From an uncultured delta proteobacterium (lineage in GTDB: Bacteria; Desulfobacterota; Desulfobaccia; Desulfobaccales; 0-14-0-80-60-11), in contig CAVPIX010000016.1 of assembly GCA_963705115.1 (NCBI GenBank), positions 579,051 through 643,050 of the forward strand: DNA of 64,000 bases. Reading direction: 5' to 3'. The notes beneath the pieces were generated by a model. It saw only the letters and a program-made list of their open reading frames with translations. It was not told where the DNA came from and did not search any database. Every line of letters begins with the position of its first letter. Within the stretch, counting starts at the first letter, position 1. Position numbers and translations under genes: made by a program. Below are positions 46,235-62,875 of the stretch, piece by piece.

Positions 46235-47296
46235 CTAATCCTTCTTCCCCGCCACGCCGGCCTCGGCGAAGGTGGCCATTTCCCGGTAAATGCGCCAGCC
46301 CGCCTCCAGGAGGCCCATGCCCAGGACGGCGCCGGTGCCCTCCCCCAGGCGCATGTTCAGATTAAACAAGGGTTTTAAGCCCAGGTGGTCCAGCATGATC
46401 TGGTGGCCGGGCTCCACCGAGCGGTGCGCGGCGATGAGGTAATCCGTCACGGCCGGGACCATCTGGGCGGCCACCAGGGCCCCGGCGGTGGCGATAAAGC
46501 CGTCCAGCACCAGGGGACGCCGGGCCGCGGCGGCTCCCAGGATGAGGCCGGCAATGCCGGCGATTTCCAGGCCGCCCACCCCGGCCAGGGCCCCCACGGG
46601 ATCATCTGGGGTGGCCTTGTTCAGGGCTATGGCCCGATTGATCACCGCCACTTTGTGGGGCACACAGGAAATGTCAATACCGGTGCCCCGGCCGGTGGTG
46701 GCCCCCGCCGGCCTGCCGGTGAACACCGTGGCCAGGGCCGCGGCCGCGGTGGTGTTGCCGATGCCCATGTCACCCGCGGCCAGGACATGCACGCCGTCCT
46801 CCACCGCGTCCTGGGCCCGCTCCACCCCCACCCACAGGGCCCGCAAGGCCTCTTCCCGGGTCATGGCGGGTTCCTGGGCCATGTTGCGGGTGCCGTAGGC
46901 CACCTTGCGGTAAACCAGGTTGAGGTTCGGTTCAAAGTCGTAATTGACCCCGATGTCCACCACCTCCACCCGGGCTCCGGCCTGCCTGGCCAGGACATTG
47001 ATGCCCGCGCCCCCCTGGATGAAATTGTAGACCATCTGGAAGGTGACCTCCTGGGGATAGGCGCTCACCTTTTCGGCCACCACCCCGTGGTCCCCGGCAA
47101 AGACCACCACCCTTTTGATATCCAGAGGCGGAAACATCTCCTCCCGGATGGCCACATATCTGGCGGCCAACTCCTCCAGCTTGCCCAGGCTGCCTGGGGG
47201 CTTGGTGAGGGAATCCAGGTGCTCCTGGGCCCGGGCGGTCCATTCGGGGTCCAGGGGCTTGATCTGCGAGGTGAGTTGGGCCAGTTCATATTCCAT
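46235..47296 (-). CDS. cobT: nicotinate-nucleotide--dimethylbenzimidazole phosphoribosyltransferase
   Basis: 353 aa; KPPGSLGKLEELA..., VFAGDHGV..., GDMGIGNTT..., MRLGEGTGA. Confidence 0.95.
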   Translation of the reverse strand: MEYELAQLTSQIKPLDPEWTARAQEHLDSLTKPPGSLGKLEELAARYVAIREEMFPPLDIKRVVVFAGDHGVVAEKVSAYPQEVTFQMVYNFIQGGAGINVLARQAGARVEVVDIGVNYDFEPNLNLVYRKVAYGTRNMAQEPAMTREEALRALWVGVERAQDAVEDGVHVLAAGDMGIGNTTAAAALATVFTGRPAGATTGRGTGIDISCVPHKVAVINRAIALNKATPDDPVGALAGVGGLEIAGIAGLILGAAAARRPLVLDGFIATAGALVAAQMVPAVTDYLIAAHRSVEPGHQIMLDHLGLKPLFNLNMRLGEGTGAVLGMGLLEAGWRIYREMATFAEAGVAGKKD

Positions 47297-50260: not shown

Positions 50261-50338
50261 GGTGGGCGTAGCTCAGTTGGTTAGAGCACCGGGTTGTGGC
50301 CCCGGAGGCCGCGGGTTCAAGTCCCGTCGCTCACCCCA
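50261..50338 (+). tRNA. tRNA-His (anticodon GTG) with encoded G-1 and CCA
   Basis: Manual cloverleaf: G-1; acceptor GTGGGCG/CGCTCAC; D arm GCTC-AGTTGGTTA-GAGC; anticodon arm CCGGG-TTGTGGC-CCCGG; variable AGGCC; T arm GCGGG-TTCAAGT-CCCGT; discriminator C; CCA. Confidence 0.95.
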
Positions 50339-50349
50339 ATGATTTCAAA

Positions 50350-50383
50350 GGGTTAGGCTTATGGCCTAGCCCTTTTCTTTTTC
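50350..50383 (+). terminator. rho-independent terminator candidate after tRNA-His
   Basis: GGGTTAGGC-TTATG-GCCTAGCCC (9 bp incl. one G:U) followed by TTTTCTTTTTC. Confidence 0.6.
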
Positions 50384-51110
50384 TTCCCCACATTATTCCC
50401 CACAGCATATTGAAAATTCAGGGTAATTCTTGTGGGATTATGCGCTTATGAAAGGTTTTCTCAAAACAGCTTGGGACTCCTGGCCGAGACCCGCCCCCCT
50501 ATACCTTCCCATAGGATTTATGGGCGGGGGTATGTCATAAGTAGGTTGCCACCCGTGCTATTGACTTAAAAACTGGTTGGGAAAATTCCAGAAATACAAA
50601 AAAGGCAGATCCATCTAGTCGCCAAAAGCCATTCTTTCCCGTTACTCCCCACTCTAACAAGCCATTTTTTCACGAAACTTATCAGGCGAAGGGTAAGGTA
50701 AGGGGTCGGAGTTTTTCTCTCGAAAATTGACGTTTAATTTGGGTTGAAACCTTCTTAGGGGGGTGTGCGGGTCAATCCAGGGGTGAGAAGTGAATTGTCA
50801 ATCCCCTCTAAAAATTTTAGAAAAACAAAAAAGGGTTGTCTATCGCAAATCTTCTTCAGCAAATCACTGGCCGCTTCAGTCCAGGTGCTTCCTCTGCCCC
50901 TCTCCCACCTTTCGCCTTGGTGGGCGTCTCATCCATCTGATGCATCTCTATTCCTTTGGGGGCGAACCCTCAAGTTCTTATAAGATGGTATGAGCTATCT
51001 GGTGACAGACGATGGGCTCAGATGTTGTAAGTCTGAAATCCGAAAAAATTAGTTTTTAAAGGAAACTTTTGCTACCATGGTTTACTGAAATCAAGGTAGG
51101 CGGGGTGCTC

Positions 51111-51962
51111 ATGGTTCAGGATGTTTTCCCTCATCTCCGAAATTTATTGGTTTGCACTGATGGCTCTCCTGCCAGCGATGGGGCAGTGAATGCCGGGCTA
51201 CAACTGGGAACCCTCACCGATGTCAAGATATGTTTGCTCGAGGTAATAACTTCTCCCGTGGCCTATGAACCCATCCCGGACCTGATATTGTCAGGGTGGG
51301 AAGAACAAGCGCGACAGCGGATGAGGACATATCAGGAAAAAGCAGCGAAGACCGGAGTGGCCCTGGAGGGTGCAGTGCGCACCAGTATATCCGTCCCTGA
51401 AGGCATCATGGAGGAGGCAGACGCCAGAAAGCCAGATTGGATTATTATGGGCCGCAAGGGGCTAAGCGGCATAAAACGTCTATTCATGGGAAGTGTGACT
51501 CGTCGGGTGATCGGCTCCAGTCATTATCACGTCTTGGTGGTGCCTCGGGAAGCCAACCTGGAGTTCAAAACAATCATGATCGCCCACGACGGCTCTGTCT
51601 TTGGAGAACATGCCTGGCGGCAGACGATTCTGTTGGCTGAAAAGGCCAACTCTGAAGTGATCGCCGTGTCGGTGGCTCGGGATAAATCTCGTCAAATAGA
51701 ATGCCAAATGGTTTTGCAACACCTGGAAGCCTCCGCCGCACGCCATGGTATAACTTTGCGATCCTTATTGCTTGAGGGTCGCCCTTTTGAACAGATCATC
51801 CAAGCCGCCCAGGAGGAAAGGGTCGATTTGATTGTTCTGGGCAGCCACGGTCGGTCGGGCTTAGACCTTCTATTAATGGGAAGCGTTGCGGAGCGGGTGA
51901 CCGGCACAGTCAGGTGTCCGGTTCTGGTAACGAAGTTCCCAATGAAGGAGGTGATGGTCTAA
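51111..51962 (+). CDS. universal stress protein, tandem UspA domains
   Basis: 283 aa from ATG 51111; two USP repeats each ending in the ATP-binding-type motif (IIMGRKGLSGIKRLFMGSVTRRV and LIVLGSHGRSGLDLLLMGSVAERV). Confidence 0.85.
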   Translation: MVQDVFPHLRNLLVCTDGSPASDGAVNAGLQLGTLTDVKICLLEVITSPVAYEPIPDLILSGWEEQARQRMRTYQEKAAKTGVALEGAVRTSISVPEGIMEEADARKPDWIIMGRKGLSGIKRLFMGSVTRRVIGSSHYHVLVVPREANLEFKTIMIAHDGSVFGEHAWRQTILLAEKANSEVIAVSVARDKSRQIECQMVLQHLEASAARHGITLRSLLLEGRPFEQIIQAAQEERVDLIVLGSHGRSGLDLLLMGSVAERVTGTVRCPVLVTKFPMKEVMV

Positions 51963-52139
51963 GCCATGTCTTCTGATAGACACTCCTTCTTTAGCCCCGC
52001 CACGATCGCCTCACTATGGGCTTCTGGTGGGGAAATTTCAAACTTTAGGCTCTCAATCTTTTTATAGAGGTATTTTAGGGGTCAATTTGAGCATGTTTTA
52101 ATGCCAACATACACTCTACTGTAAGTCCAAGCATTTATT

Positions 52140-52547
52140 TCAAACAAAAACACAATTCCTTCCTATAGACCTCTTAGCTTTATCAAGTCTCAAAGGAATT
52201 ATTGCAACCTTATGTGACCCAGGCTCAAATTCCCTATTAATAAACAATGAGATTGCATCATTACACTTATTATTAAATTCTGAGTCGCAGTTATCATCAT
52301 GTTCAGATTCTTCAAAAATAACCTTAGCCATTTCATCCTTTAAATAACTCTTTGCAAAATCCTCGCTTAAATATATCCAGAAATTATTGGGCTCGACTCC
52401 TTCTCCAAAAACAAACTCGACGTGAGGACAATAACGAAAAGATTCATCAACTATATCAATTAATGCTCCACAAACCGGACAGAAAAAGGGTATCCCTATC
52501 TCTATGGTTAACCTTTCTTCAGGGTTGAGCTTTTTATTCATATCCAT
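52140..52547 (-). CDS. AT-rich orphan gene, 135-aa protein with N-terminal zinc-ribbon-like CPVCG...CPH
   Basis: Uninterrupted ORF in a strongly AT-rich stretch (20 G+C in the 60 nt 52141-52200). Acidic middle (EESEHDDNCDSEF). No family recognised. Confidence 0.6.
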   Translation of the reverse strand: MDMNKKLNPEERLTIEIGIPFFCPVCGALIDIVDESFRYCPHVEFVFGEGVEPNNFWIYLSEDFAKSYLKDEMAKVIFEESEHDDNCDSEFNNKCNDAISLFINREFEPGSHKVAIIPLRLDKAKRSIGRNCVFV

Positions 52548-52632
52548 AACTTAAAAATCCATGCCGTGAAATTATTTAGAATAAGTGTACCTCTAATTTT
52601 CCAAGGGCTAATAGACTTGCCAACATCAATTA

Positions 52633-53586
52633 TTAACTTGTTGTTTTCAAAATGTGATCTCTTACCATTTTCGGCACAAATTCATATTGAATTGTGGGAA
52701 TATTTTTAGCTTTTCCAGTTCCTTTAATTCTGCGCAATAGTGGTTTTGGCAGAAAGTCATCAAAAAAATCATCCGTGTCAAAATCATCAGACTTTATGTT
52801 CTTTTTACATAAATATAACTCACACCATTCCATACCATTAGCACTTTTAAAATCTTGAAGACTTATTCTAGCCATTTTTGTAAGCGGATGGATGAACCAA
52901 GGCTCAACCTGAAAGAAACTTAATTCTGACTCTACATAATTAAATCCTTCTGGTGTAATGAAATAATAAAAAGATATTTTGCCATCAACGCCGCTCAATG
53001 CTACTTCGAGACAATATGGCTCCGTTGGAAGAGTAATATCTATAAACCCTGAGGTTATGCTTGCAGTGCCGTCATGAGTAGTATGATTCCCAATGATTAC
53101 TTGTGTAAGCCCTGGAATAACCTTTATATTTTTAAATTTTAGCTGAAATGGATTAAATGGATATAGCATCCCACCACATGCGCACGTTGGATTCTCAAAA
53201 TTAATGTCTCGCTTGTGCCATTTATCATCTTTTTGCAGCGCCTTAAAACCTTCTTTGTCCTTCATATAGAAATGGGAAGGCAACAAGAATCGTCCTGATA
53301 GGCAAGAAAAAAATATTATTGGCAAATTATCGTCAAGTATTGCAGATGAAAAATGATCAATGCTGGCAATTTCAACAAGTGAAAATCCGGCTGGAGAATC
53401 TATACGAAATATTTCAGTCTCTTCTGTATCCTCTGATTTTGCCTTATTCGTAGCTTCTTTTTTAGATGAATAAAGCAATAGCTGCCCTTGGGTATTCCCC
53501 AGAAAACCCATTTTTTTCCCCATGAAGACATTCTTTGGGCAATTTGCTATGAAGTCAGGTTTAACCCGCAAGGCATAAAAACTCAT
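52633..53586 (-). CDS. AT-rich orphan gene, 317-aa protein, no recognisable domain
   Basis: Uninterrupted 317-codon ORF despite AT-rich composition (stop-rich background), which argues for real coding. Starts 35 nt downstream of the methyltransferase stop on the same strand. Confidence 0.6.
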   Translation of the reverse strand: MSFYALRVKPDFIANCPKNVFMGKKMGFLGNTQGQLLLYSSKKEATNKAKSEDTEETEIFRIDSPAGFSLVEIASIDHFSSAILDDNLPIIFFSCLSGRFLLPSHFYMKDKEGFKALQKDDKWHKRDINFENPTCACGGMLYPFNPFQLKFKNIKVIPGLTQVIIGNHTTHDGTASITSGFIDITLPTEPYCLEVALSGVDGKISFYYFITPEGFNYVESELSFFQVEPWFIHPLTKMARISLQDFKSANGMEWCELYLCKKNIKSDDFDTDDFFDDFLPKPLLRRIKGTGKAKNIPTIQYEFVPKMVRDHILKTTS

Positions 53587-54584
53587 TCTTCACCTCAGGT
53601 CTAAATGTGGAACTCCTCGGGTTAATTGTTCCCCTTTCCCTGGAAGGCATCCGGCCAGCCGCCGTGCAGGTTGATGACTTCGTCGATTTCCTTCATGAGG
53701 CGGATGGTTTCGTGGAGGGCGATGACGATGCGGTGGTAGTGGGTGAGGTCGTCTGCCGAGAGGGTTCGGCCCTTACGGTCCTTGAGCCATTTCTGGCAGA
53801 CTTGATAGCCGCCGATGTGGAAGCTCCAGACCTCTTCGGGGACGCCGTGGAAACCGATGGAGCCGGTCACGGCATCGTTGGGGCCGCCAGGGCCGCCCTT
53901 GGCCTTCTTGGATTTGACCGCGTCCAGCCAGACCGTGTCGTCCGACCGCCCCACCTTCTCGACGACAGGACCAACGGGGCCGGTGAAGGTAAGGACCACG
54001 GGCAGTCGGTGACCAGGGGCGATGTCGTAGCGCCACGCCTTGGCGGGTTGGTCGTAGCGGGCGTGGAGAGCCTGTTGCATCGGGGCCTCAACCAGGTGAA
54101 GGGATACGAGTTCGCCGCCTAACTGGGCCAAGGCGTGGAATAGTTCGAGGCTCGACGCAAGCGGTAGGCGGGGGAAATCGATTTTCAGAAACTCTGAATA
54201 TCGGGATCTGTATTTGGGGCTGTGAAGCACCGCATATGCATAATGGAAGATGTCCTCAGGTGTTAAGCCTTGAGGCAAACCATGGGGGACTGCTTGAGGA
54301 ACACTAAGATTATTAGCCAATGATCTCAAGAATTCCGGCCTGAGGTTGGGTTGTCGTTTATATGATAGCGCCAAGGCTTTTCCGTCTGGATAAAGCCAAA
54401 AGGGGAAAGAGATAGTTTACCTCTTTCAAGGACACCGAATGACTCTCTGTCATTATCCTCGTGATTTTGCTAACCTAAAAATGACCCCCCTGGGGAGGTT
54501 TTGGGAACCCAAAAGTGACCCCCCTGACACTGACTTCTGATACCACTGGTGACCATCACCAAAGTGGGATCAGAGGTGGAAGGG

Positions 54585-56078
54585 ATGATCAGGATGGATC
54601 AGTATGGGTATATCCGCACCGCGCACCGGGTTTACCAGAAGAGCATCAAGCAGATTTGCCGGGAGACCGGTCATTCCCGGAAAACGGTGAGAAAGGTCCT
54701 CCGGAGTGAACCATGTGGCTATGCCCCCAGGACTGAGCAACCGTATCCAGTGTTGGGGCCCTACCTCCAGGTCATTGATCAGTGGCTGACAGAGGATAGA
54801 GCCAGGCCCAGGAAGCAACGGCACACCGCCAAGCGTATTTATGACCGCTTGGTGCGGGAACTGGGCTTTCAGGGCCATGACTCCACGGTGCGGCGCTATG
54901 TCCGCCAGGCCAAGAGGCGTTTGGGAGTGCAGGTGACGCCGGCTTTTATCCCCCTGGATCCGGAAGTGGGCCGGGAAGCCGAGGTAGACTGGGGTGCAGC
55001 CACAGCCATCATCGCCGGCGAGAGGATAACGATAAAATTTTTCTGCATGCGGTCCAAGTTTTCCGGGAAGCATTTCGTGCGCTGCTACCCTTGTGAGCGG
55101 CAGCAAGCCTTCCTGGACGGTCATCTCCATGCCTTTGCCTTTTTCAAGGGCATCCACGCCGTTCTGGTCTATGACAACCTGACCTCGGCAGTGAAGAAGG
55201 TCTGCCGCGGCAAAGTGCGTATCGAGCAGGAAGAGTTTGCCAAGTTCCGGGCCTACTATAATTTTACGGCGCGCTTTTGCAACCCTGACGGCGCCCACGA
55301 GAAGGGCGGGGTCGAAGGACTGGTGGGTTACGTGCGGCGGAACTACCTGGTGCCGGTGCCTGAGGCCGAGAGCCTGGAAGCCTTGAATGACAGACTTCTG
55401 GAGGAGTGTCTGGCCTATGGCGAGCACCGGATCAGGGGCCGGGAAGGCACCGTCAACGAGTTGTTTGCCGGGGAGCAGGGCCGTCTGTTACCGCTCCCGG
55501 CCGCACCCTTCAGCCTCACACAGATCACCTCCGGCAAGGTGGACGCCTATGCCACGGTGATCGTGGACAAGAACCGCTATTCCGTGCCCAGTGTCTACGC
55601 GGGGTTAAGAGTCCAGGTGCAGTTATCCGTGACTCACCTGGAGATCTTCCATAACGGCAAGAAGCTGGCCAGGCATCCCCGGGTCTTTGGTAACAACAAG
55701 TGGCAGCTTGACCCGGACCACTACCTGGAGCTGATTCAGCAAAGACCTGGCGCCTTTCACGACGCCCGGCCGCTGCGCCGCTGGCGGGAGACCTGGCCTC
55801 CCTGCCTGGAAAAACTTTTGGCCAGGTTCCAGGAGAATCAGGGAGAAACCGCGGGCATCAAGGATTTTATCTCGGTGCTGATGCTCTATCGGGAGCATCC
55901 GGGTGAGGCGATTGCGGCCGCGGTGGAACTGGCCTTGAAGAACCACCTCAGTTCCAGCCAAGGGGTGAAACATCTCCTGCAGCAGAGCAAGGTGGAACGC
56001 TCGGCGCCTCTTCCGCAATGGCCGGCGACCTTGGTGCCCGACCTCTCCGTTTATGGCCAGTTGGGAGGGGTGTCATGA
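54585..56078 (+). CDS. istA: IS21-family transposase IstA
   Basis: 497 aa; N-terminal HTH (KQICRETGHSRKTVRKVL), DDE integrase-core region; stop overlaps the istB ATG (ATGA). Confidence 0.9.
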   Translation: MIRMDQYGYIRTAHRVYQKSIKQICRETGHSRKTVRKVLRSEPCGYAPRTEQPYPVLGPYLQVIDQWLTEDRARPRKQRHTAKRIYDRLVRELGFQGHDSTVRRYVRQAKRRLGVQVTPAFIPLDPEVGREAEVDWGAATAIIAGERITIKFFCMRSKFSGKHFVRCYPCERQQAFLDGHLHAFAFFKGIHAVLVYDNLTSAVKKVCRGKVRIEQEEFAKFRAYYNFTARFCNPDGAHEKGGVEGLVGYVRRNYLVPVPEAESLEALNDRLLEECLAYGEHRIRGREGTVNELFAGEQGRLLPLPAAPFSLTQITSGKVDAYATVIVDKNRYSVPSVYAGLRVQVQLSVTHLEIFHNGKKLARHPRVFGNNKWQLDPDHYLELIQQRPGAFHDARPLRRWRETWPPCLEKLLARFQENQGETAGIKDFISVLMLYREHPGEAIAAAVELALKNHLSSSQGVKHLLQQSKVERSAPLPQWPATLVPDLSVYGQLGGVS

Positions 56079-56869
56079 AAGCCACCACGGAGATGGTGCT
56101 CACCGACAACCTGCAGACGCTCAAGCTCTCCCATATGCTGCGCCACCTGGAACCGCAACTCCGCCAGGCCCGGGAACAGAGCCTGGACTACGGCGACTTC
56201 CTGCTCTCCTTAACAGAGCTCGAACTGGAGGGGCGGGCCGAGAACCGCCTGAGACGGCGGCTAAGGGAGGCCAAGTTCCCGCTGCTGAAGACGCTGGAGA
56301 TGTTTGACTATCATGCCGCCCCGGGTCTGGACCGACGTCTGCTGCACCAACTGGCTTCGGGGGAATATATCAGCCAGCCGCGCAACGTCATCTTTTTGGG
56401 CAAAAGCGGCACGGGCAAAACCCACCTGGCTACAGGCCTGGGTGTGGAGGCCTGCCGCCAGGGTATTACCACCCGCTTTGTCACCGGCTGCGGTCTGGCC
56501 AACGAACTCCTGGAGGCACGCCAGGGGCTCGCCCTGAGCCGCATCATTAAACGATATGCGCGCTATGGTCTGCTCATCCTCGATGAACTGGGATATGTCC
56601 CCTTCTCCAAAGAAGGCGCCGAATTGCTCTTCCAGGTGTTGGCGGAACGGCATGAACGGGGGTCGGTGATCATTACGTCCAACCTGGGCTTTGCCGACTG
56701 GACCCAGGTTTTTGGCGAGCCCACCCTCACTGCGGCGTTGTTGGATCGCCTGACCCATAAAGCCCATATTATCACCTGTGACTGGGAAAGCTTCCGGCTC
56801 CAAGAGAGTTTGAAAGTGAAAGGTGGAGCAGCCAAAGAGAAATCGAGGCAGGCCAGCCTTGGCCGGTAG
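56075..56869 (+). CDS. istB: IS21-family ATP-binding helper protein IstB
   Basis: 264 aa; Walker A FLGKSGTGKTHLATGLG, Walker B LLILDELGY. Confidence 0.9.
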   Translation: MKATTEMVLTDNLQTLKLSHMLRHLEPQLRQAREQSLDYGDFLLSLTELELEGRAENRLRRRLREAKFPLLKTLEMFDYHAAPGLDRRLLHQLASGEYISQPRNVIFLGKSGTGKTHLATGLGVEACRQGITTRFVTGCGLANELLEARQGLALSRIIKRYARYGLLILDELGYVPFSKEGAELLFQVLAERHERGSVIITSNLGFADWTQVFGEPTLTAALLDRLTHKAHIITCDWESFRLQESLKVKGGAAKEKSRQASLGR

Positions 56870-59725
56870 AACGTTCACGGCAGGATGGCAGGGCGCGCTC
56901 GGCCTGCCCTGCATGTCCCTGGTGCCGGCAGGCCGAGCACGCTTTGCCCCGGCCCGTCTGGCTTACAAACTTCAACTAACCAGACAAGAGGGGGGGTCCC
57001 TTTTCGGTTCCCACAGGGGGTCACTTTTAGGTTCCCATTTACAATCCTCGCACAAATCACATGGCTGAAAGCGCCCACTTCCACTTTTCGAGTGGTCATC
57101 AAGCCCACATTTTGATTGTCAATCATATTTGACATGATAGCGGTTGCCGGCCGCGCAATGAAACCTTTGGTTCTGCCAGTGTAGTAGATGAAACGTTTAT
57201 CGAAGGGGCGATATAGAATTGGTTTGATCAGAGCCTTAGACAAGGGACTTGACCGAATATCCCTCCTTGGGCGAGCGCAACCTTCCAATCTTGCACATCA
57301 TTTCTAAGGTTAAACTCCTCACGCGCTTGCTCCTCGTCTAGTTCGGCAAATCTCTGGACACGCGTCCAAATCTCGTCGAGATTAATGGCAATCGTTAAAT
57401 GATCTCTTAGCTGTTACAACCCCCACAGAATGGAGAATCGTTGCCTCTGAAAGCAAAGGCATAAGCTCAAATTCTTCTCGGTGTGTTTGATCTTGGGCAA
57501 TAAAAAGGTAGAATGGGTTGCTTGGCCAGAGCTTATCGCACACAAGTGAATGCACTGAACTGGTAGTGAGGGAAAGATATTTCTTTCGCGACTGCCAAAT
57601 AAATCACCATGCATTACTGACGTATTTGATGATTTTGCTACCAACGTTCTGACAAAAAGGCCGACGGCAACCCCTTGCTGAATGTCAAAAACGTTTGCAT
57701 CGGGAGTTCCATCTGGGGCTGTTTCCTTTTTTTTGGTGTTGCCGTGGAGGTTGATTAACTGGCACCGCTGGAATGAGTTCAACAAACTCTTCCTCATCCC
57801 CCTGAATGTTGGATTATCCAAATACCCGTGATTTGTTATGTAGCCAAGGACTCCATGGCCAGCGTGTTCAACAAGTAGTTGGCCCAAACGGATAAACTTT
57901 ACATAATCATCTTGAAGCCAGAGTTTCTTCTCGCCAAGAGGTTCTCCATCGATGGTCTTGTAGGAATCGACCAAATGAACAGCATGTTCAGAATTGTTTG
58001 ATGAAACACCCGCATACGGCGGATTGCCAATGACAACGGTGAAGCGCTGGCAACGTTTGATGGTATTGACTGCTTGGGCTTCGTGGTCAAGGGCGGGTAT
58101 CATAGAAGCAAATCGGCCCGAGAAGTCATGAGCCGGCTCCAAGGCGTTCGTCAGGTAGACGCGCACGCGCTCCATCGCTACCGAAATGGTAACCCGTCTC
58201 ATAAAGCTTGAGCCCGATCTTCATGTGGGCAACGGCGTAGGGGGCCATGAGCAGTTCGTAGCCGTAAAGCCGAGGGAGGAGGTTCCGAGGGACATAGTCA
58301 TTCCAGAGGTGTTCGATTTCTCTGGGGCTGCACCCCTGGTCCTGCCACTTCTTAGTCATGGTTTTATGGATGAGGTCGATGACCTCCACGATAAAAGTGC
58401 CGGTGCCGGTGGCCGGGTCCAGGATTTGGACGAAGGGTTCCTCGGGCTTGGTGCCTTCCGGGATGGTGAGGCCCTCGTGACGCTCTACCATTTCACCCCA
58501 GGTGGTCGTGTCGGCAAGGCCGTCGGTCAAGCCAAATTCGGTGCGCAAGAGATCATCTACCGAACGGACAATATAGGAGACCACCGGCCGGGGGGTATAA
58601 AAAATTCCCCGTTTCATCTTCTGTTCGGCATCATATTCCTTCAGGAAGAGTTCGTAAAAGTGGATGACCGGGTCCTCTTCGGGCTTTAAGTCTCCGAAAT
58701 CCCGGACCACGGCTTCCATGTTGGCGGCGTCCAAGAGCTCCACCACCTCGCTCACCCCAAGCTCATCGAAGTCGATACCAGGGCCCTTGCCGACCTTCCC
58801 TTTGCGGCCCCCCACGTCCAGAAAGGTCTCCATGAGCTCTTTAAGGAAGGGATTGGTGACCGGCATCTGAGCTGCCAGATCGTCGGCGGTCTTGCCCTGA
58901 GGGTTTTCTACCCGAGCCGAGAGGAGGCCGTAAGCGATAGTTTGGGCATACATATCCGCAAAGCCTTCAGCGTCCAAGTCGTGGACCAGGGCCTCCTGGA
59001 AAGCCTTCATGATTTTGGTCAAGGGGCCATCCTTGGTTTCGATCTTCAGGATGGTCCTGATGCGGTCCCGGATGGCCCGGGCCAGTTCAGCCAAGCTTAC
59101 GGCCAAATCCCGGGAAGTATTAATAACCTCCTGGTGGCGCAGGGTGAAAGCCTCCCGCCAGATCCTGCGCCAGTCTTCCAAATCATCCGGATCATCCGGC
59201 CAGGATAGCCTTCCAACCAGCATTTTCGCCACATGGTCGAGGTGGAGAGGAGTGTCCAGGTTGTCCCAGCCGAGGACCTTGAGGGTGGGCAAATCATTCT
59301 TCCGGCCATGCTGGGCGAAGTGCGCAAAGCTGATGTGCCGGTCGCCCCCCTCGCCGTAGTTGGAGATAAAGAGCAAGTCGTCAGCCTGCCAGGCGGCGCT
59401 CTCAGCCCTGTTGGCCGAAGCCCGCTTCTTCAATACTACCCGGCTCAGGATGCGCCGCAGGGCCACAACGGGAAGGCGCTTGGGCTCAAACTTGACGAAG
59501 AAGATGCCCCAGGGCTGGTTTACATCCAAGGGGCGCAGACGTTTGATCTCCTGGATCTTGGCGGCGTTGGCTGGGTCGATGCCGAGCTCCTCGGGGGAGT
59601 AATCGAAGGTCAGTTCCTCGAAGTCCTCGTCAAGAATCGGCCAGTCCAGTTCATCCCGCAGGAACTTGATCAGGGACGGAAAGGTGCGAATCTGCCGCAA
59701 TCTCTCCCGGTAATCCGTCATTGGT

Positions 59726-62700
59726 TCACCCCTCGTTCAGCTCCATCCAACACCTGAGCTTCGGCTTGACCCCAACGGGGGCGTCAACCCGCTTGAGATA
59801 GGTATTTTTGATGTGCTTGAGCATCTTATTCCGGAGGTCTTTCAGGGTCTTTTGTTCGGTAACGCACTTGCGGGGAGTGCCGGGCTTGGAGCGGATACTG
59901 TCGATGATCTCCCCTGGCTCTTCGAGGATGGTATCCCGGTCCAGGTCATAGAGATACCAGCGGGTTGTCCCGGCTTCCTCGGTGAACTCGCCGGTCTCTT
60001 TGTCCAACGCGGGTAGGCCATAGCAGAAAAAGACGCCCCTGACCCCTTTGGCGGGACGTTTGCGACCGCTGAAAATGGCACCTGGAAAGCCGTTCAGGAT
60101 GCCGATGAGATCAGGATTTTCCTGAATCAGGGCCTGATACTCAAGATGCATCTCCTCGACGGCGGTCTTGGTTCCCTCATAATCGTGATTGAACTCTTTG
60201 AGAGCCTCAAAGTCGTCCTCAGGTCTGAGCAACTTCTTGCCCTCGATGCCCATGGTCTTGGAGATTAAAAGAGTTTTTTGGGTGACGATGCGGTAAAGCG
60301 CCAGGATGGCGTTCAGCTCATCCGGAGGCAGGAAGTTCCAGAAGGACACTCTGCCCCGGGACGCAGCGACCTCAGGATGGTCCTGAGTCAGTTTCTTTTC
60401 CACCGCGGGACTCATGCGCCGGTCCACGCGGCCGATGCGCTGCATAAGGCGGACTGGATTCCAATGAATATCATAGTTGATCATCCGGGAAGCATCCTGG
60501 AGGTTAAGACCTTCAGAAAGGACGTCGGTGGAGATGAGGACGCGGGTCTCCGTTAGGCCCTTGGCCTTGAGTTCGGCGGAAGTGGCGCCGTTGTAATAGG
60601 GGGAAAAGCTCCGAATGATGTCGGCCCGGTTGCCCTTGCTGGAGCTGTCGACCTGGGCCACTCCATCGATACCCGCTTCCTGGAGTTGGCGGTGGAGATA
60701 GCGGGCCGTATCCGCGAACTCGGTGAAGATGAGGACCTTTTGGCCTTCCAGGTCTTTGGATTTGAGGAGACGGATGAGCTTTTTCAACTTATCATCATGT
60801 CGGGGCTCAAACTTTCTGGTCTCCTCAAGAAAGCTGGCGATCTGATCGAGATCCAGAAAGGTCTCCTGCATAATCTCAACGACCTCGTATTCGTCGCGGC
60901 TCAGCTTAGTAACGGCTTCGAGGAGTTCCTGCGGGACGATATCCTCGTCCACGTCTTCAAGTTCCTCCTCGTCCCAGAACGAACGCTGTCGCTGATGAAC
61001 ATAGCCCAGGACCTCGGCGTGCTGCTGCTTCCAACGCTCCAGGCGCTTCTTCTCGGCATCTGTTTCGCTGTGGACCTCTAAAAAAGCCAGTAGCTTTTTG
61101 AGCAAGCGGTCACAGGAAAACTCAAAGGCATTGACGGAACTTTCAAACCGTTTCAGGAACTGGGTGCGGATCAGGCTGATTACCTGCTTTTGGCGATTCT
61201 CCACCCAGGGATCGATGCTCTTATCGTCGCCTTTGTAATACGCCAAGGGGTAATAAATCGGGAGGCTAAACAGAGGATTCTTCTTGGCGAAGGCCTTCTC
61301 GAAGAGCTCCAGGAGACGGCCATAGGTCTTGCGAATGGAATACTCGGCTACGGCCGGGGCTTTCCTCTCCGGAAAAGCGGCAGACGCACCGGTCTCTCGA
61401 ATCTGGCTTTCGCGGGCATAGGCCCGGCTGCGCTGAACAACAAGATGCCGGAAAATATCATCGCCAGCCAGGGTCTTCTGGGCCTCGGCTAAATTCTCCC
61501 CAAGATCCAATCCATCTCCACCAAGGCGCTTATTGAGTTCTCCCTCCATGCGGTTGAAATGAGCGCGCAGATTGTGCACGCCTAAGGTTCGGGCAAAGTA
61601 GGCTTCGTCCCTCCGGGTAAAGAGCTCGGCCATGTGGCGAAAATCGGCGAGCCTATTATTAATCGGCGTGGCCGTCAGCATGAAGACTGTCTTCGGCCGA
61701 ATGGAGTCGTCAAGCAGATCGAAGAGCTTGTAATAACGTGACCGGAAATCGTCATTTTCAGAGCTCCCTTGCCTACCGGGGTTTCGAAAGTGGTGGGCCT
61801 CGTCGATGATGACTGCGTCTGCGAGCTCGGCGATGCGAAGAAACCTCTCTGGAAAGTCGCCCTTCCGGCCAAGGTCCGTGTGGCTGAAAACCGCGAGATT
61901 ACTGAAATCGGCTCCGCCCCCAACCCCTCCGATGTGAGGAAGATACTGGTGCAAATGCGGCTCCCAGACACCTTCCTTGGTGGGCTTTGGGGCAAAGAGG
62001 ACAACACGTTTCCCCTCATGCAAAATCAGGCGCTCGATGAGCATCAGCCCCACGAAGGTCTTGCCGAGGCCCACCCCGTCGCAGAGGAAGGCGCCACCAT
62101 GTTGTCGGGCGATCTTTACCAGAGCCCAGTAGGCTTCTTTCTGATAGCGGTCGAGCCTCCCAAACATCTTAGAGCGGGCCTCTTCCCACTCGCTGGCGGT
62201 TATCTCGTGCCCACGAAAGAACTCATGCAGGGCTTTGGCATAAATGTCAAAGGGAGTATAGGCGTGAATGTGCCGGGAGATGAGACTCAGCACGTCATCG
62301 GTGATTTCCTTTGCCTCCTCCCAATGGTGATCGAACCAATCTTGAAGCTGAGCAACCTCCCGACCGCTCTGAATTTGGACATTGAGCTCTATGTTTTCGG
62401 TAAGTCCCGGCCGGGTGAAGTTGCTGGATCCAACCAGAGCCTGTGCACCGACCACGTCAAGTTTGGCGTGGGTGATATAGGCCTTGGCGTGGAACTTATC
62501 TCGGTCATAGACTCGACACTCGATTTGGCGTGACTTGAGGGCCTTGGTGATCGCCGGGACCCCATCAAGGAACGGATTGGCTTCCTTCTCGGCTTCAAGG
62601 CTCTCGTCCAGACTCTCAGTGGCCTTTGCCTTAACGGCCTCGAGAAGAGCCTTCCTCGTGCGTTGGGTCGTCTCGGCGCCCATTAAGACACGGATCTTCT

Positions 62701-62875
62701 CCAACCCTTGCCATTTGCCATCAAGTTCGAGCAAAGAGCCGATCTCGAAGAATCCTGTGCAAATATCGAAACTCTTGGCGATCCCCGTCCATTCCTCGAG
62801 GTAACGGAGACCGGTCCAGCCGGATACACTGTTGTCGACGATGAAGAGGGCGCCGCCTTTCCGCTCGATTAACAT
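59726..62875 (-). CDS. PLD-family nuclease domain fused to SNF2/DEAD-like helicase (YeeB-like partner of the methyltransferase)
   Basis: 1049-aa uninterrupted ORF; HKD motif FHAKAYITH...GSSNFT; helicase motif I DGVGLGKT, motif II IIDEAHHFRN, helicase-C (HWNPVRLMQRIGRVDR). Stop is 4 nt before the methyltransferase ATG. Confidence 0.9.
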   Translation of the reverse strand: MLIERKGGALFIVDNSVSGWTGLRYLEEWTGIAKSFDICTGFFEIGSLLELDGKWQGLEKIRVLMGAETTQRTRKALLEAVKAKATESLDESLEAEKEANPFLDGVPAITKALKSRQIECRVYDRDKFHAKAYITHAKLDVVGAQALVGSSNFTRPGLTENIELNVQIQSGREVAQLQDWFDHHWEEAKEITDDVLSLISRHIHAYTPFDIYAKALHEFFRGHEITASEWEEARSKMFGRLDRYQKEAYWALVKIARQHGGAFLCDGVGLGKTFVGLMLIERLILHEGKRVVLFAPKPTKEGVWEPHLHQYLPHIGGVGGGADFSNLAVFSHTDLGRKGDFPERFLRIAELADAVIIDEAHHFRNPGRQGSSENDDFRSRYYKLFDLLDDSIRPKTVFMLTATPINNRLADFRHMAELFTRRDEAYFARTLGVHNLRAHFNRMEGELNKRLGGDGLDLGENLAEAQKTLAGDDIFRHLVVQRSRAYARESQIRETGASAAFPERKAPAVAEYSIRKTYGRLLELFEKAFAKKNPLFSLPIYYPLAYYKGDDKSIDPWVENRQKQVISLIRTQFLKRFESSVNAFEFSCDRLLKKLLAFLEVHSETDAEKKRLERWKQQHAEVLGYVHQRQRSFWDEEELEDVDEDIVPQELLEAVTKLSRDEYEVVEIMQETFLDLDQIASFLEETRKFEPRHDDKLKKLIRLLKSKDLEGQKVLIFTEFADTARYLHRQLQEAGIDGVAQVDSSSKGNRADIIRSFSPYYNGATSAELKAKGLTETRVLISTDVLSEGLNLQDASRMINYDIHWNPVRLMQRIGRVDRRMSPAVEKKLTQDHPEVAASRGRVSFWNFLPPDELNAILALYRIVTQKTLLISKTMGIEGKKLLRPEDDFEALKEFNHDYEGTKTAVEEMHLEYQALIQENPDLIGILNGFPGAIFSGRKRPAKGVRGVFFCYGLPALDKETGEFTEEAGTTRWYLYDLDRDTILEEPGEIIDSIRSKPGTPRKCVTEQKTLKDLRNKMLKHIKNTYLKRVDAPVGVKPKLRCWMELNEG

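Follow-up and report, generated by a model that had tools for sequence, protein, structure and literature searches.

A foreign, AT-rich two-gene cassette beside restriction genes in an uncultured delta proteobacterium, a candidate mobile conflict module

In this work, we focus on two adjacent genes, orfA and orfB, which occupy a strongly AT-rich block within a stretch of 64,000 nucleotides from an uncultured delta proteobacterium of the Desulfobaccales (assembly GCA_963705115.1, contig CAVPIX010000016.1, positions 579,051 to 643,050 of the forward strand; this whole stretch is called the window below). Both genes lie on the minus strand, orfA at 52633..53586 (317 aa) and orfB, as it is read in frame, at 52140..52547 (135 aa, acidic, with an isoelectric point (pI) of 4.7), and they are separated by a spacer of 85 nt, the larger gene coming first. 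The block that holds them is a horizontally acquired cassette, and its two genes are real protein-coding genes that are foreign to the host genome. The reading that we put first, with a confidence somewhat short of even, is that they form a horizontally acquired, mobile two-gene conflict module, most likely a new candidate for defence against phages or other mobile genetic elements (MGE).

The block runs from 51963 to 53621, has a GC content of about 0.35 and, by composition profile and codon-position GC, spans the entire interval between the stop codon of a convergent universal stress protein (Usp) gene and that of an upstream restriction-modification (RM) gene. In segments of 300 nt, the GC content is 0.32-0.39 from about 52000 to 53600, while that of the surroundings is 0.55-0.70; the drop sets in exactly at the TAA (53624-53622) that ends the RM gene on the minus strand, and it ends near 51962, at the stop of the Usp gene. 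An earlier note on this DNA, made from the letters alone, had counted 20 G+C in the 60 nt at 52141-52200 and 41 in the 60 nt at 46261-46320, and these counts are exact; the two long frames that it had seen on one strand (317 and 135 aa) were also reproduced, both on the minus strand. At third codon positions, the GC content (GC3) is 0.296 in orfA and 0.294 in orfB, versus 0.73-0.86 in the core genes and 0.68-0.74 in the neighbouring RM and IS21 genes, and neither orfA nor orfB was found by tblastn in 80 related Desulfobaccales/Nitrospirota loci. The origin of the block is foreign because its GC3 of 0.29 stands against 0.73-0.86 and because it is missing from these 80 related genomes. The acquisition appears to have been recent and the donor to have been of low GC, as the earlier note had proposed, which is supported by the GC3 (0.29 versus about 0.8), by the position in an island at a tRNA-His gene and by the absence from the related loci. 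A frame of 317 codons arose in none of 2000 shuffles of the block, in which the longest frame had 224 codons. Frames of at least 135 codons were found in 1.7% of 2000 shuffles, so the length of orfB is by itself weak evidence for a real gene. Searches for flanking direct or inverted repeats, for an att-like repeat of the tRNA and for Rfam elements found nothing to account for the insertion of the block, and the promoter and terminator scans of the block gave scores no better than those of shuffles.

orfA starts 35 nt past the stop codon of the RM gene, on the same strand, and a Shine-Dalgarno-like GAGGTG (53591..53596, minus strand) is found 4 nt upstream of its ATG; the terminator scan found no terminator-like site between the RM gene stop and orfA. 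Both genes had been called orphans in the earlier note, and this label had to be given up. For orfA, an exhaustive HMMER search of 1.84 billion representative proteins recovered 10 full-length homologues (271-319 aa, 27-41% identity, E values from 3e-65 to 2e-20), together with the orfA fragment of a close relative of our locus, L001. These were the sole matches among so many proteins, and the orfA family, uncharacterised soluble proteins of about 300 aa, is therefore real but very rare. The contigs that carry the homologues have GC contents of 0.39-0.58. A word-indexed homology search had given no match at all for orfA, a result that we did not trust since this search missed even the near-identical fragments of L001.

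The alignment of the 11 sequences of the family contains ten invariant residues (D77, S94, C95, L102, P103, H105, F106, C135, C137 and G138) and the conserved motifs FSCxSGxYxLPSHFYR, DDxWH, PxCGCG, EPWxVCPLSGLVRI and PxIQYE. The copy in the window is intact over its 317 codons and has kept every residue that is invariant in the family. The landmarks listed for it beforehand, namely a Lys/Glu-rich stretch at residues 40-60, a CACGG segment at 135 and an acidic DDFDTDDFFDDF stretch at 267, are all where they had been placed, and the last of them is an insertion that is unique to the window copy within the family alignment. With this alignment of 11 sequences, AlphaFold gave a confident model of orfA (mean pLDDT 87.8, pTM 0.84), versus an unusable one from the single sequence (pLDDT 37). 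According to the model, orfA would have a three-domain architecture: an alpha/beta domain at the N-terminus (residues ~1-95), a Cys/His-rich hairpin region (residues ~95-160) that holds the four invariant Cys and His residues, and a beta-sandwich (residues ~160-262), after which come the disordered acidic insertion of the window copy (residues 268-280) and a C-terminal helix. The residues C95, H105, C135 and C137 are best read as a putative structural Cys3-His zinc site.

No family could be assigned to orfA in Pfam, NCBIfam or PHROGs, and when the 11 members were scanned singly, nothing was found below an E value of 0.2. PADLOC gave no family at E<=1 for orfA, and likewise none for its homologue P0006. 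Compared with solved structures (PDB) and with viral predicted structures (BFVD), by profile and by Foldseek, the orfA profile and model had no significant match; the scans with family models found no nuclease, kinase or other toxin-like signature, and no SIR2, SLOG or Macro domain. A search of DNA with a degenerate FSC..G..LPSHF pattern returned one contig already known and two false positives, L094 and L095, which were rejected. In these two contigs (L095 11971-13881 and L094, GC 0.26-0.30), a transmembrane (TM) segment of an FtsX-like permease chances to fit the orfA motif (FISCLIGIYLFPGHF), which is a caution against searches by motif only.

The second gene encodes a small acidic protein whose N-terminus resembles a zinc ribbon. 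Its Cys3-His motif reads C23-P-V-C26 ... C40-P-H42; the earlier note had seen the CPVCG (at 23) and the CPH (at 40) correctly, but the spacer between them is of 12 residues and not of 14. Two homologues of orfB were obtained, the L001 copy (P0001, 99% identity) and a protein from another metagenome (P0002, 74% identity). In Pfam, only DUF7577 was reported for orfB, at 13.3 bits for a cutoff of 28, and NCBIfam and PHROGs gave nothing; PADLOC gave no family at E<=1, the helix-turn-helix (HTH) and ribbon-helix-helix models matched neither orfB nor P0002 nor the orfB-like proteins described below, and scans of genome and metagenome collections for further orfB relatives found nothing. Homology to a housekeeping family, which the earlier note had named as an outcome that would speak against its view, was looked for and found for neither gene.

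The end of orfB deserves particular attention. P0002 is longer than orfB, and its final 18 residues before the terminal Tyr are LFEINAWTYSRVYVGIKT. In the window, the 22 codons that follow a T5 run read, in the +1 frame, ...FEINAWTYSRVYVGIKT..., a sequence identical to the P0002 C-terminus, and the 18 residues come immediately past the stop codon of orfB, so that 18 of 18 residues of the out-of-frame tail match a homologue that is otherwise 74% identical. This conserved C-terminal tail (EINAWTYSRVYVGIKTCSN plus stop) lies at 52082..52139 on the minus strand, and the frame is lost in a T5 homopolymer at 52146..52150, where a T4 would restore it; the T5 is also present in L001, an independent contig. 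The reconstructed, frameshift-corrected orfB has 154 aa. Three explanations can be given for the tail in this lineage, namely a very recent truncation, a homopolymer error common to both sequences, or a +1 frameshift during translation. The tail being unchanged, either the inactivation is very recent, or the site is frameshifted through, or the sequence is in error. The in-frame stop at 52140-52150 has a GUU-UGA-A geometry that is akin to the CUU-UGA-C of the prfB +1 site. We consider a simple insertion of 1 nt to be the most probable explanation of this GUU-UGA site, and the production of full-length orfB through +1 ribosomal frameshifting to be speculative. The idea that the orfB tail corresponds to the C-terminus of a 109-aa protein of L005 was dropped, as MAFFT puts that terminus on the AISLFINREF motif of orfB.

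Genomic contexts were obtained for nine orfA homologues, among which L002, L004 and L010 are too short for pairing to be judged. The window and L001 have orfA and orfB adjacent and co-oriented. In L092, a gene for an orfB-like small protein (...IEIKCPYCNH...YCEHTVFVYVDP...DFAAGYL) comes 80 nt after the orfA homologue P0010, on the same strand; this small protein is 49% identical (E 8e-25) to the 109-aa CPVC...CEH protein of L005. The gene for the latter lies 0.5 kb from the orfA homologue P0006, and a second paralogue (132 aa) is found 1.4 kb away; the set of loci L005-L009 has two such orfB-like copies within 2 kb of the orfA homologue, in convergent orientation. The small-protein family of L005 and L092 is related to the orfB family by hhalign (92.5% probability, E 4.9e-7), with a BLASTP match to orfB at E 7e-5, and the similarity extends over the Cys3-His motif, the FV[YF] strand and the DFAxxYL segment. 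Judged by these sequence matches, the pairing of orfA with an orfB-like gene is conserved in at least three unrelated loci (the window with L001, L092, and L005-L009). L005 and L092 also have in common a third family (157/158 aa, 57% identity) that is absent from the window, and whose homologue in L092 (3251-3727) lies directly upstream of the orfA homologue; the profile of this family had no match in the PDB. A 267-aa protein of L092 that had been taken by eye for an orfA paralogue ('LRIYSSKKLA') was rejected (hhalign probability 0.4%).

The surroundings of these pairs suggest biological conflict. In the window, orfA comes after a gene with Type_ISP_C and REase_MTase_IIG matches and an HKD-Snf2 helicase gene. 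The loci L005-L009 carry, on one strand, a ThsB-like TIR gene (E 4.5e-16), a gene for a 217-aa single-pass membrane protein and then the orfA homologue, and this cluster lies between a resolvase gene and a convergent array of six small genes, directly beyond which HmaC and HmaB are found (PADLOC E = 0). The array of L005 (10905-13482, minus strand, 90-171 aa) is downstream of HmaC and on the same strand as it, and it includes the two orfB-like genes; its products are mostly acidic (pI 4.2-5.8 for five of the six) and all lack a significant match in Pfam. PADLOC gave none for the three that were scanned against it, and no relative of the 109-aa member turned up in plasmids or viral contigs. At L005 8732-9918, and also in L006-L009, the TIR gene overlaps by 28 nt the gene for the 217-aa protein, which has a single TM helix, at the N-terminus, and matches no family; these two genes could be an undescribed Thoeris-like pair that is independent of orfA. 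In L092, the orfA homologue has genes for ARPP-1 (E 1e-83) and a Cas4-like PD-(D/E)XK nuclease upstream of it, and ARPP proteins with restriction endonuclease-fold effectors have been predicted to form a host immune system (Iyer et al. 2022, PMC9503650). All three informative neighbourhoods thus abut known or predicted defence systems. Most of the genes that lie inside or abut RM, Hma, BREX or DISARM loci, with the same orientation as these, are defence genes; of nine that were tested, seven were active (Payne et al., 10.1101/2024.01.29.577857).

The cassette of the window sits in a larger accessory region. A tRNA-His gene (50262..50338, plus strand; ARAGORN and Rfam) closes a CobO, radical-SAM and tRNA-His synteny that is common to the relatives, among which the core radical-SAM protein has 86-91% identity to those of Desulfobaccales and 'delta proteobacterium' metagenome-assembled genomes. 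This synteny breaks off no more than about 60 nt past the 3' end of the tRNA gene (~50340-50400), and the DNA from about 50.4 kb to the end of the window at 64.0 kb is an accessory island, since nothing in it is common to the relatives. No integrase or att repeat of the island lies inside the window, so its far end must be beyond 64000. The same tRNA-His is an integration hotspot in Desulfobaccales, as can be seen in three relatives: L035 (138-9850) and L057 (910-9811) carry elements with an integrase and a replicase, the former also with a capsid gene, which are bounded by a 50-nt repeat of the 3' half of the tRNA, and at the same site in L041 (557-9815), a D5-type primase is encoded along with a Type ISP-like enzyme of 1025 aa that is intact. 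The Usp gene that converges on orfB (51069..51962, plus strand; tandem-domain, by Pfam) is accessory too, with a GC3 of 0.58 and only matches of 29-50% identity, mostly partial, in related genomes.

On the other side of the cassette, the RM gene (domains N6_Mtase, Eco57I and Type_ISP_C) is found in pieces, along with its partner, an HKD-SNF2 helicase. Its nearest piece is a Type_ISP_C fragment of a Type IIG/ISP-like gene for a methyltransferase with a target recognition domain (53622..54374, minus strand; Pfam E 2.4e-44, PADLOC REase_MTase_IIG). It is followed by an element of the IS21 family inserted in the gene (54397..57043, plus strand, by Pfam; istA 54549-56078, istB 56018-56869), which bears tandem 28-nt repeats close to its left end (54465-54526) and is absent from L001. 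The rest of the RM-like system (56875..62875, minus strand; Pfam, NCBIfam, PADLOC and frame analysis) consists of the 1049-aa PLD(HKD)-SNF2 helicase (62875..59726, minus strand) and of methyltransferase fragments on the minus strand in alternating frames: 59736->58129 (frame 0), 58220->57417 (frame 1) and 57297->56878 (frame 0). A patch with a GC content of 0.43-0.47 (~57050-58100) coincides with the middle fragment. The RM gene is a pseudogene because of the IS21 insertion and of the two frame changes, and the RM system looks inactivated. orfA and orfB do not belong to it, because their GC3 is 0.29 versus 0.70, because tblastn found no relative of either in the L041 locus, whose Type ISP-like gene is intact, and because L005 and L092 have orfA homologues that are not accompanied by RM genes.

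The recent history of the cassette can be followed in L001 (ENA ERZ25039459, contig_121999), which is colinear with the window apart from the missing IS21 element. The two sequences differ by 6.3% substitutions in the C-terminal segment of the RM gene and by 5.9% in the tRNA-adjacent DNA (50368-50934), versus only 0.0-0.2% over the ~2.7 kb from 50935 to 53664 that hold the Usp gene with its upstream DNA, orfB, orfA and the final 40 nt of the RM gene; the Usp gene itself is 100% identical. This near-identity could come from a recombination event or sweep of recent date, or else from coexisting strains that were joined in a chimeric assembly. Within orfA and orfB, L001 differs from the window by an in-frame insertion of 3 bp with two substitutions, a single V46A change and three indels of 1 bp that adjoin A runs. 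Disrupted frames in closely related strains, together with a lack of expression, had been put forward in the earlier note as a sign against its view; here, the indels are more likely to be assembly errors than proof of decay, because of their position at A runs and because the contig is rich in indels, with 48 gap openings over 7 kb in the RM region and a name styled like those of long-read assemblers.

We can now come back to what the pair might do. There is nothing unusual in the setting, a tRNA-linked island with foreign cargo next to restriction genes, and there are many comparable unknown families; by the measure of every library searched, the orfA and orfB families are of no known kind. 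We hold more loosely the narrower possibility that the pair is an unrecognised two-gene immune module, of an architecture without a detectable relative, which would move between defence islands and would do without a recognisable nuclease, NTPase or NADase domain. Tentatively, and going by the predicted model, orfA may be the main component, serving for recognition or as a scaffold: its conserved, zinc-stabilised core would be joined to a less conserved immunoglobulin-like beta-sandwich, and the latter could recognise a component of the invader. The orfB-like protein would then be a small partner, be it a regulator, a neutraliser or a co-effector, and the module might be self-contained and travel as such between defence islands. 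The suggestion of a toxin/immunity or anti-phage pair in the earlier note has partial support, in the recurrent pairing beside defence genes; neither gene matches a catalogued defence, toxin or antitoxin family.

Several observations weigh against a defence module. Only three contexts are long enough to be informative, and the adjacency of orfA to an RM gene is seen only in two near-identical sequences, the window and L001. No orfB-like gene follows orfA in L003, L011, L093 or the contig of P0008, and the orfB-like genes of L005 are convergent with orfA and not co-transcribed with it. No PADLOC, Pfam, NCBIfam or PHROGs model fits either family, and neither an enzymatic nor an effector domain can be recognised; PADLOC has no match for the orfB-like and 157-aa companions either. 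L005 bears MGE cargo (a resolvase, a secreted Nuc-like PLD and RyR-like proteins), so that a role on the side of the element is possible. Finally, with a frameshift in orfB and a pseudogene in place of the adjacent RM gene, the locus may be non-functional here; since the conserved tail of orfB has been lost through the frameshift, the module may be partly decayed in this strain.

The first alternative, which we consider unlikely without dismissing it, is that the pair is cargo that serves an MGE, as anti-defence or establishment genes. It would then be carried by integrative or conjugative elements, and the small acidic zinc-ribbon proteins, both orfB-like and of the 157-aa family, would inhibit host defences. 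It would fit an island at a tRNA hotspot where the relatives carry elements with an integrase, a replicase and a capsid gene, as well as the content of L005, with its resolvase, its Nuc-like PLD with a signal peptide, its RyR-like proteins and its array of six mostly acidic small proteins. It would also fit the acidity of orfB and its relatives (pI 4.5-5.2, with a single exception at 6.2) and the recurrence of the 157-aa family in L092. However, the three families had no plasmid or viral match in the collections searched: tblastn against 72,556 plasmids gave none for orfA, P0006, P0002, an orfB-like protein or the 158-aa companion, tblastn of orfA against 50,697 phages gave none, and pattern scans of the IMG/VR viral contigs found nothing for the orfA, orfB-like or 157-aa families. 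Moreover, the genes of the window are co-oriented with the host-type RM operon that precedes them, Pfam and PHROGs showed no resemblance to known anti-restriction families, and the immediate neighbours are defence genes in three of three contexts.

It is improbable, in our opinion, that both genes are inert passenger DNA in this genome, that is to say a decaying hitch-hiker in an island that is undergoing inactivation, which would be compatible with any function elsewhere. The loss of the orfB tail by a 1-nt insertion common to L001, the splitting of the neighbouring RM gene by IS21 and two frame changes, a codon usage that is extremely mismatched to the host and the further 1-bp indels in both genes of L001 are what such decay would leave. 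Yet orfA has stayed intact over 317 codons in stop-rich sequence with all its invariant residues, the indels of L001, next to A runs in an indel-rich contig, look like assembly errors, and the frameshifted tail of orfB is unchanged, with 18 of 18 residues as in the 74% homologue.

Still less credit can be given to a toxin-antitoxin (TA) or addiction module in the order of MqsR/MqsA, kept by post-segregational killing and without a dedicated anti-phage role. In its favour are the compactness of the cassette, with both genes on one strand, the larger one ahead and 85 nt between them, and the small second protein with its N-terminal Cys-pair zinc motif; the cassette is also patchy, horizontally moved and compositionally foreign, and a recent spread would fit the ~2.7-kb segment that is near-identical in two strains whose flanks are about 6% apart. 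But no toxin or antitoxin family, MqsA included, matched at E<=1, and orfA is a 317-aa three-domain protein without a toxin-like signature. The orfB-like genes of L005 are convergent and duplicated in a six-gene array, which is atypical of TA modules, and orfB is truncated in the window while orfA is intact, which would be lethal if orfA were a potent toxin that needs the full-length orfB. As for chance open reading frames, which the 1.7% of shuffles with at least 135 codons could have suggested for orfB, they are refuted by the 317 codons reached in 0 of 2000 shuffles, by the distant full-length homologues of orfA and the 74% homologue of orfB, and by the confident orfA model from the family alignment.

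Should the pair prove to be a functional immune or counter-immune module, it would add an architecture and a mechanism that are missing from the defence catalogues, and it would do so from an anaerobic lineage that has been poorly sampled (Desulfobaccales and other uncultured environmental bacteria) and whose pan-immune system is for the most part unexplored. Even with mere passenger DNA, the locus would illustrate clearly how horizontal transfer can be nested and mosaic at a tRNA hotspot. Two points of method can also be retained: a word-indexed search implied an orphan where an exhaustive profile search gave a family sufficient for a confident model, and 'guilt by adjacency' to restriction systems can flag very rare candidates.

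It is useful to set the pair against the systems that it recalls. The Type ISP/Type IIG RM system is a neighbour only, orfA and orfB being compositionally unrelated to it (GC3 0.29 versus 0.70). With zinc-ribbon and rubredoxin-like knuckles, orfB shares the CPxC...x12...CxH arrangement and sub-threshold matches to DUF7577, Zn_ribbon_4, rubrerythrin, RNA polymerase subunit P and KCMF1; these matches are, however, far below significance (E >= 0.01 in Pfam and >= 0.29 in the PDB), and the acidic middle, the AISLFINREF motif and the conserved tail of orfB have no counterpart there. In the MqsR/MqsA system, the toxin gene comes first and the antitoxin has an N-terminal zinc-binding domain. The pair of the window is similar in its large-then-small order on one strand and in its second protein of ~130-150 aa with an N-terminal zinc-ribbon-like Cys motif, but neither protein matches MqsA, MqsR or another TA family in sequence (Pfam, E<=1), orfB has no recognisable HTH, orfA is three times as large as MqsR, with another predicted architecture, and the partners are not always co-transcribed, as L005 exemplifies. 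The likeness to Thoeris comes from L005-L009, where the orfA homologue comes third in a cluster of co-oriented genes, after a ThsB-like TIR gene and a gene for a single-pass membrane protein; in contrast, no TIR gene is near orfA in the window, L001 or L092, orfA is without SIR2, SLOG or Macro domains, and the TIR and membrane protein of L005-L009 could form a complete system alone. Lastly, the pair can be compared with the HEC and PDC candidates of Payne et al., the latter being included in the PADLOC-DB v2 that we used (5027 models). It differs from them in that the cassette of the window lies downstream of RM genes and not between them, and in that no PADLOC model fits either protein or any recurring companion; but it is like them a small foreign cassette, co-oriented beside an RM-like system in the window or next to Hma in L005, and like them it consists of rare, patchy families without homology to housekeeping genes.

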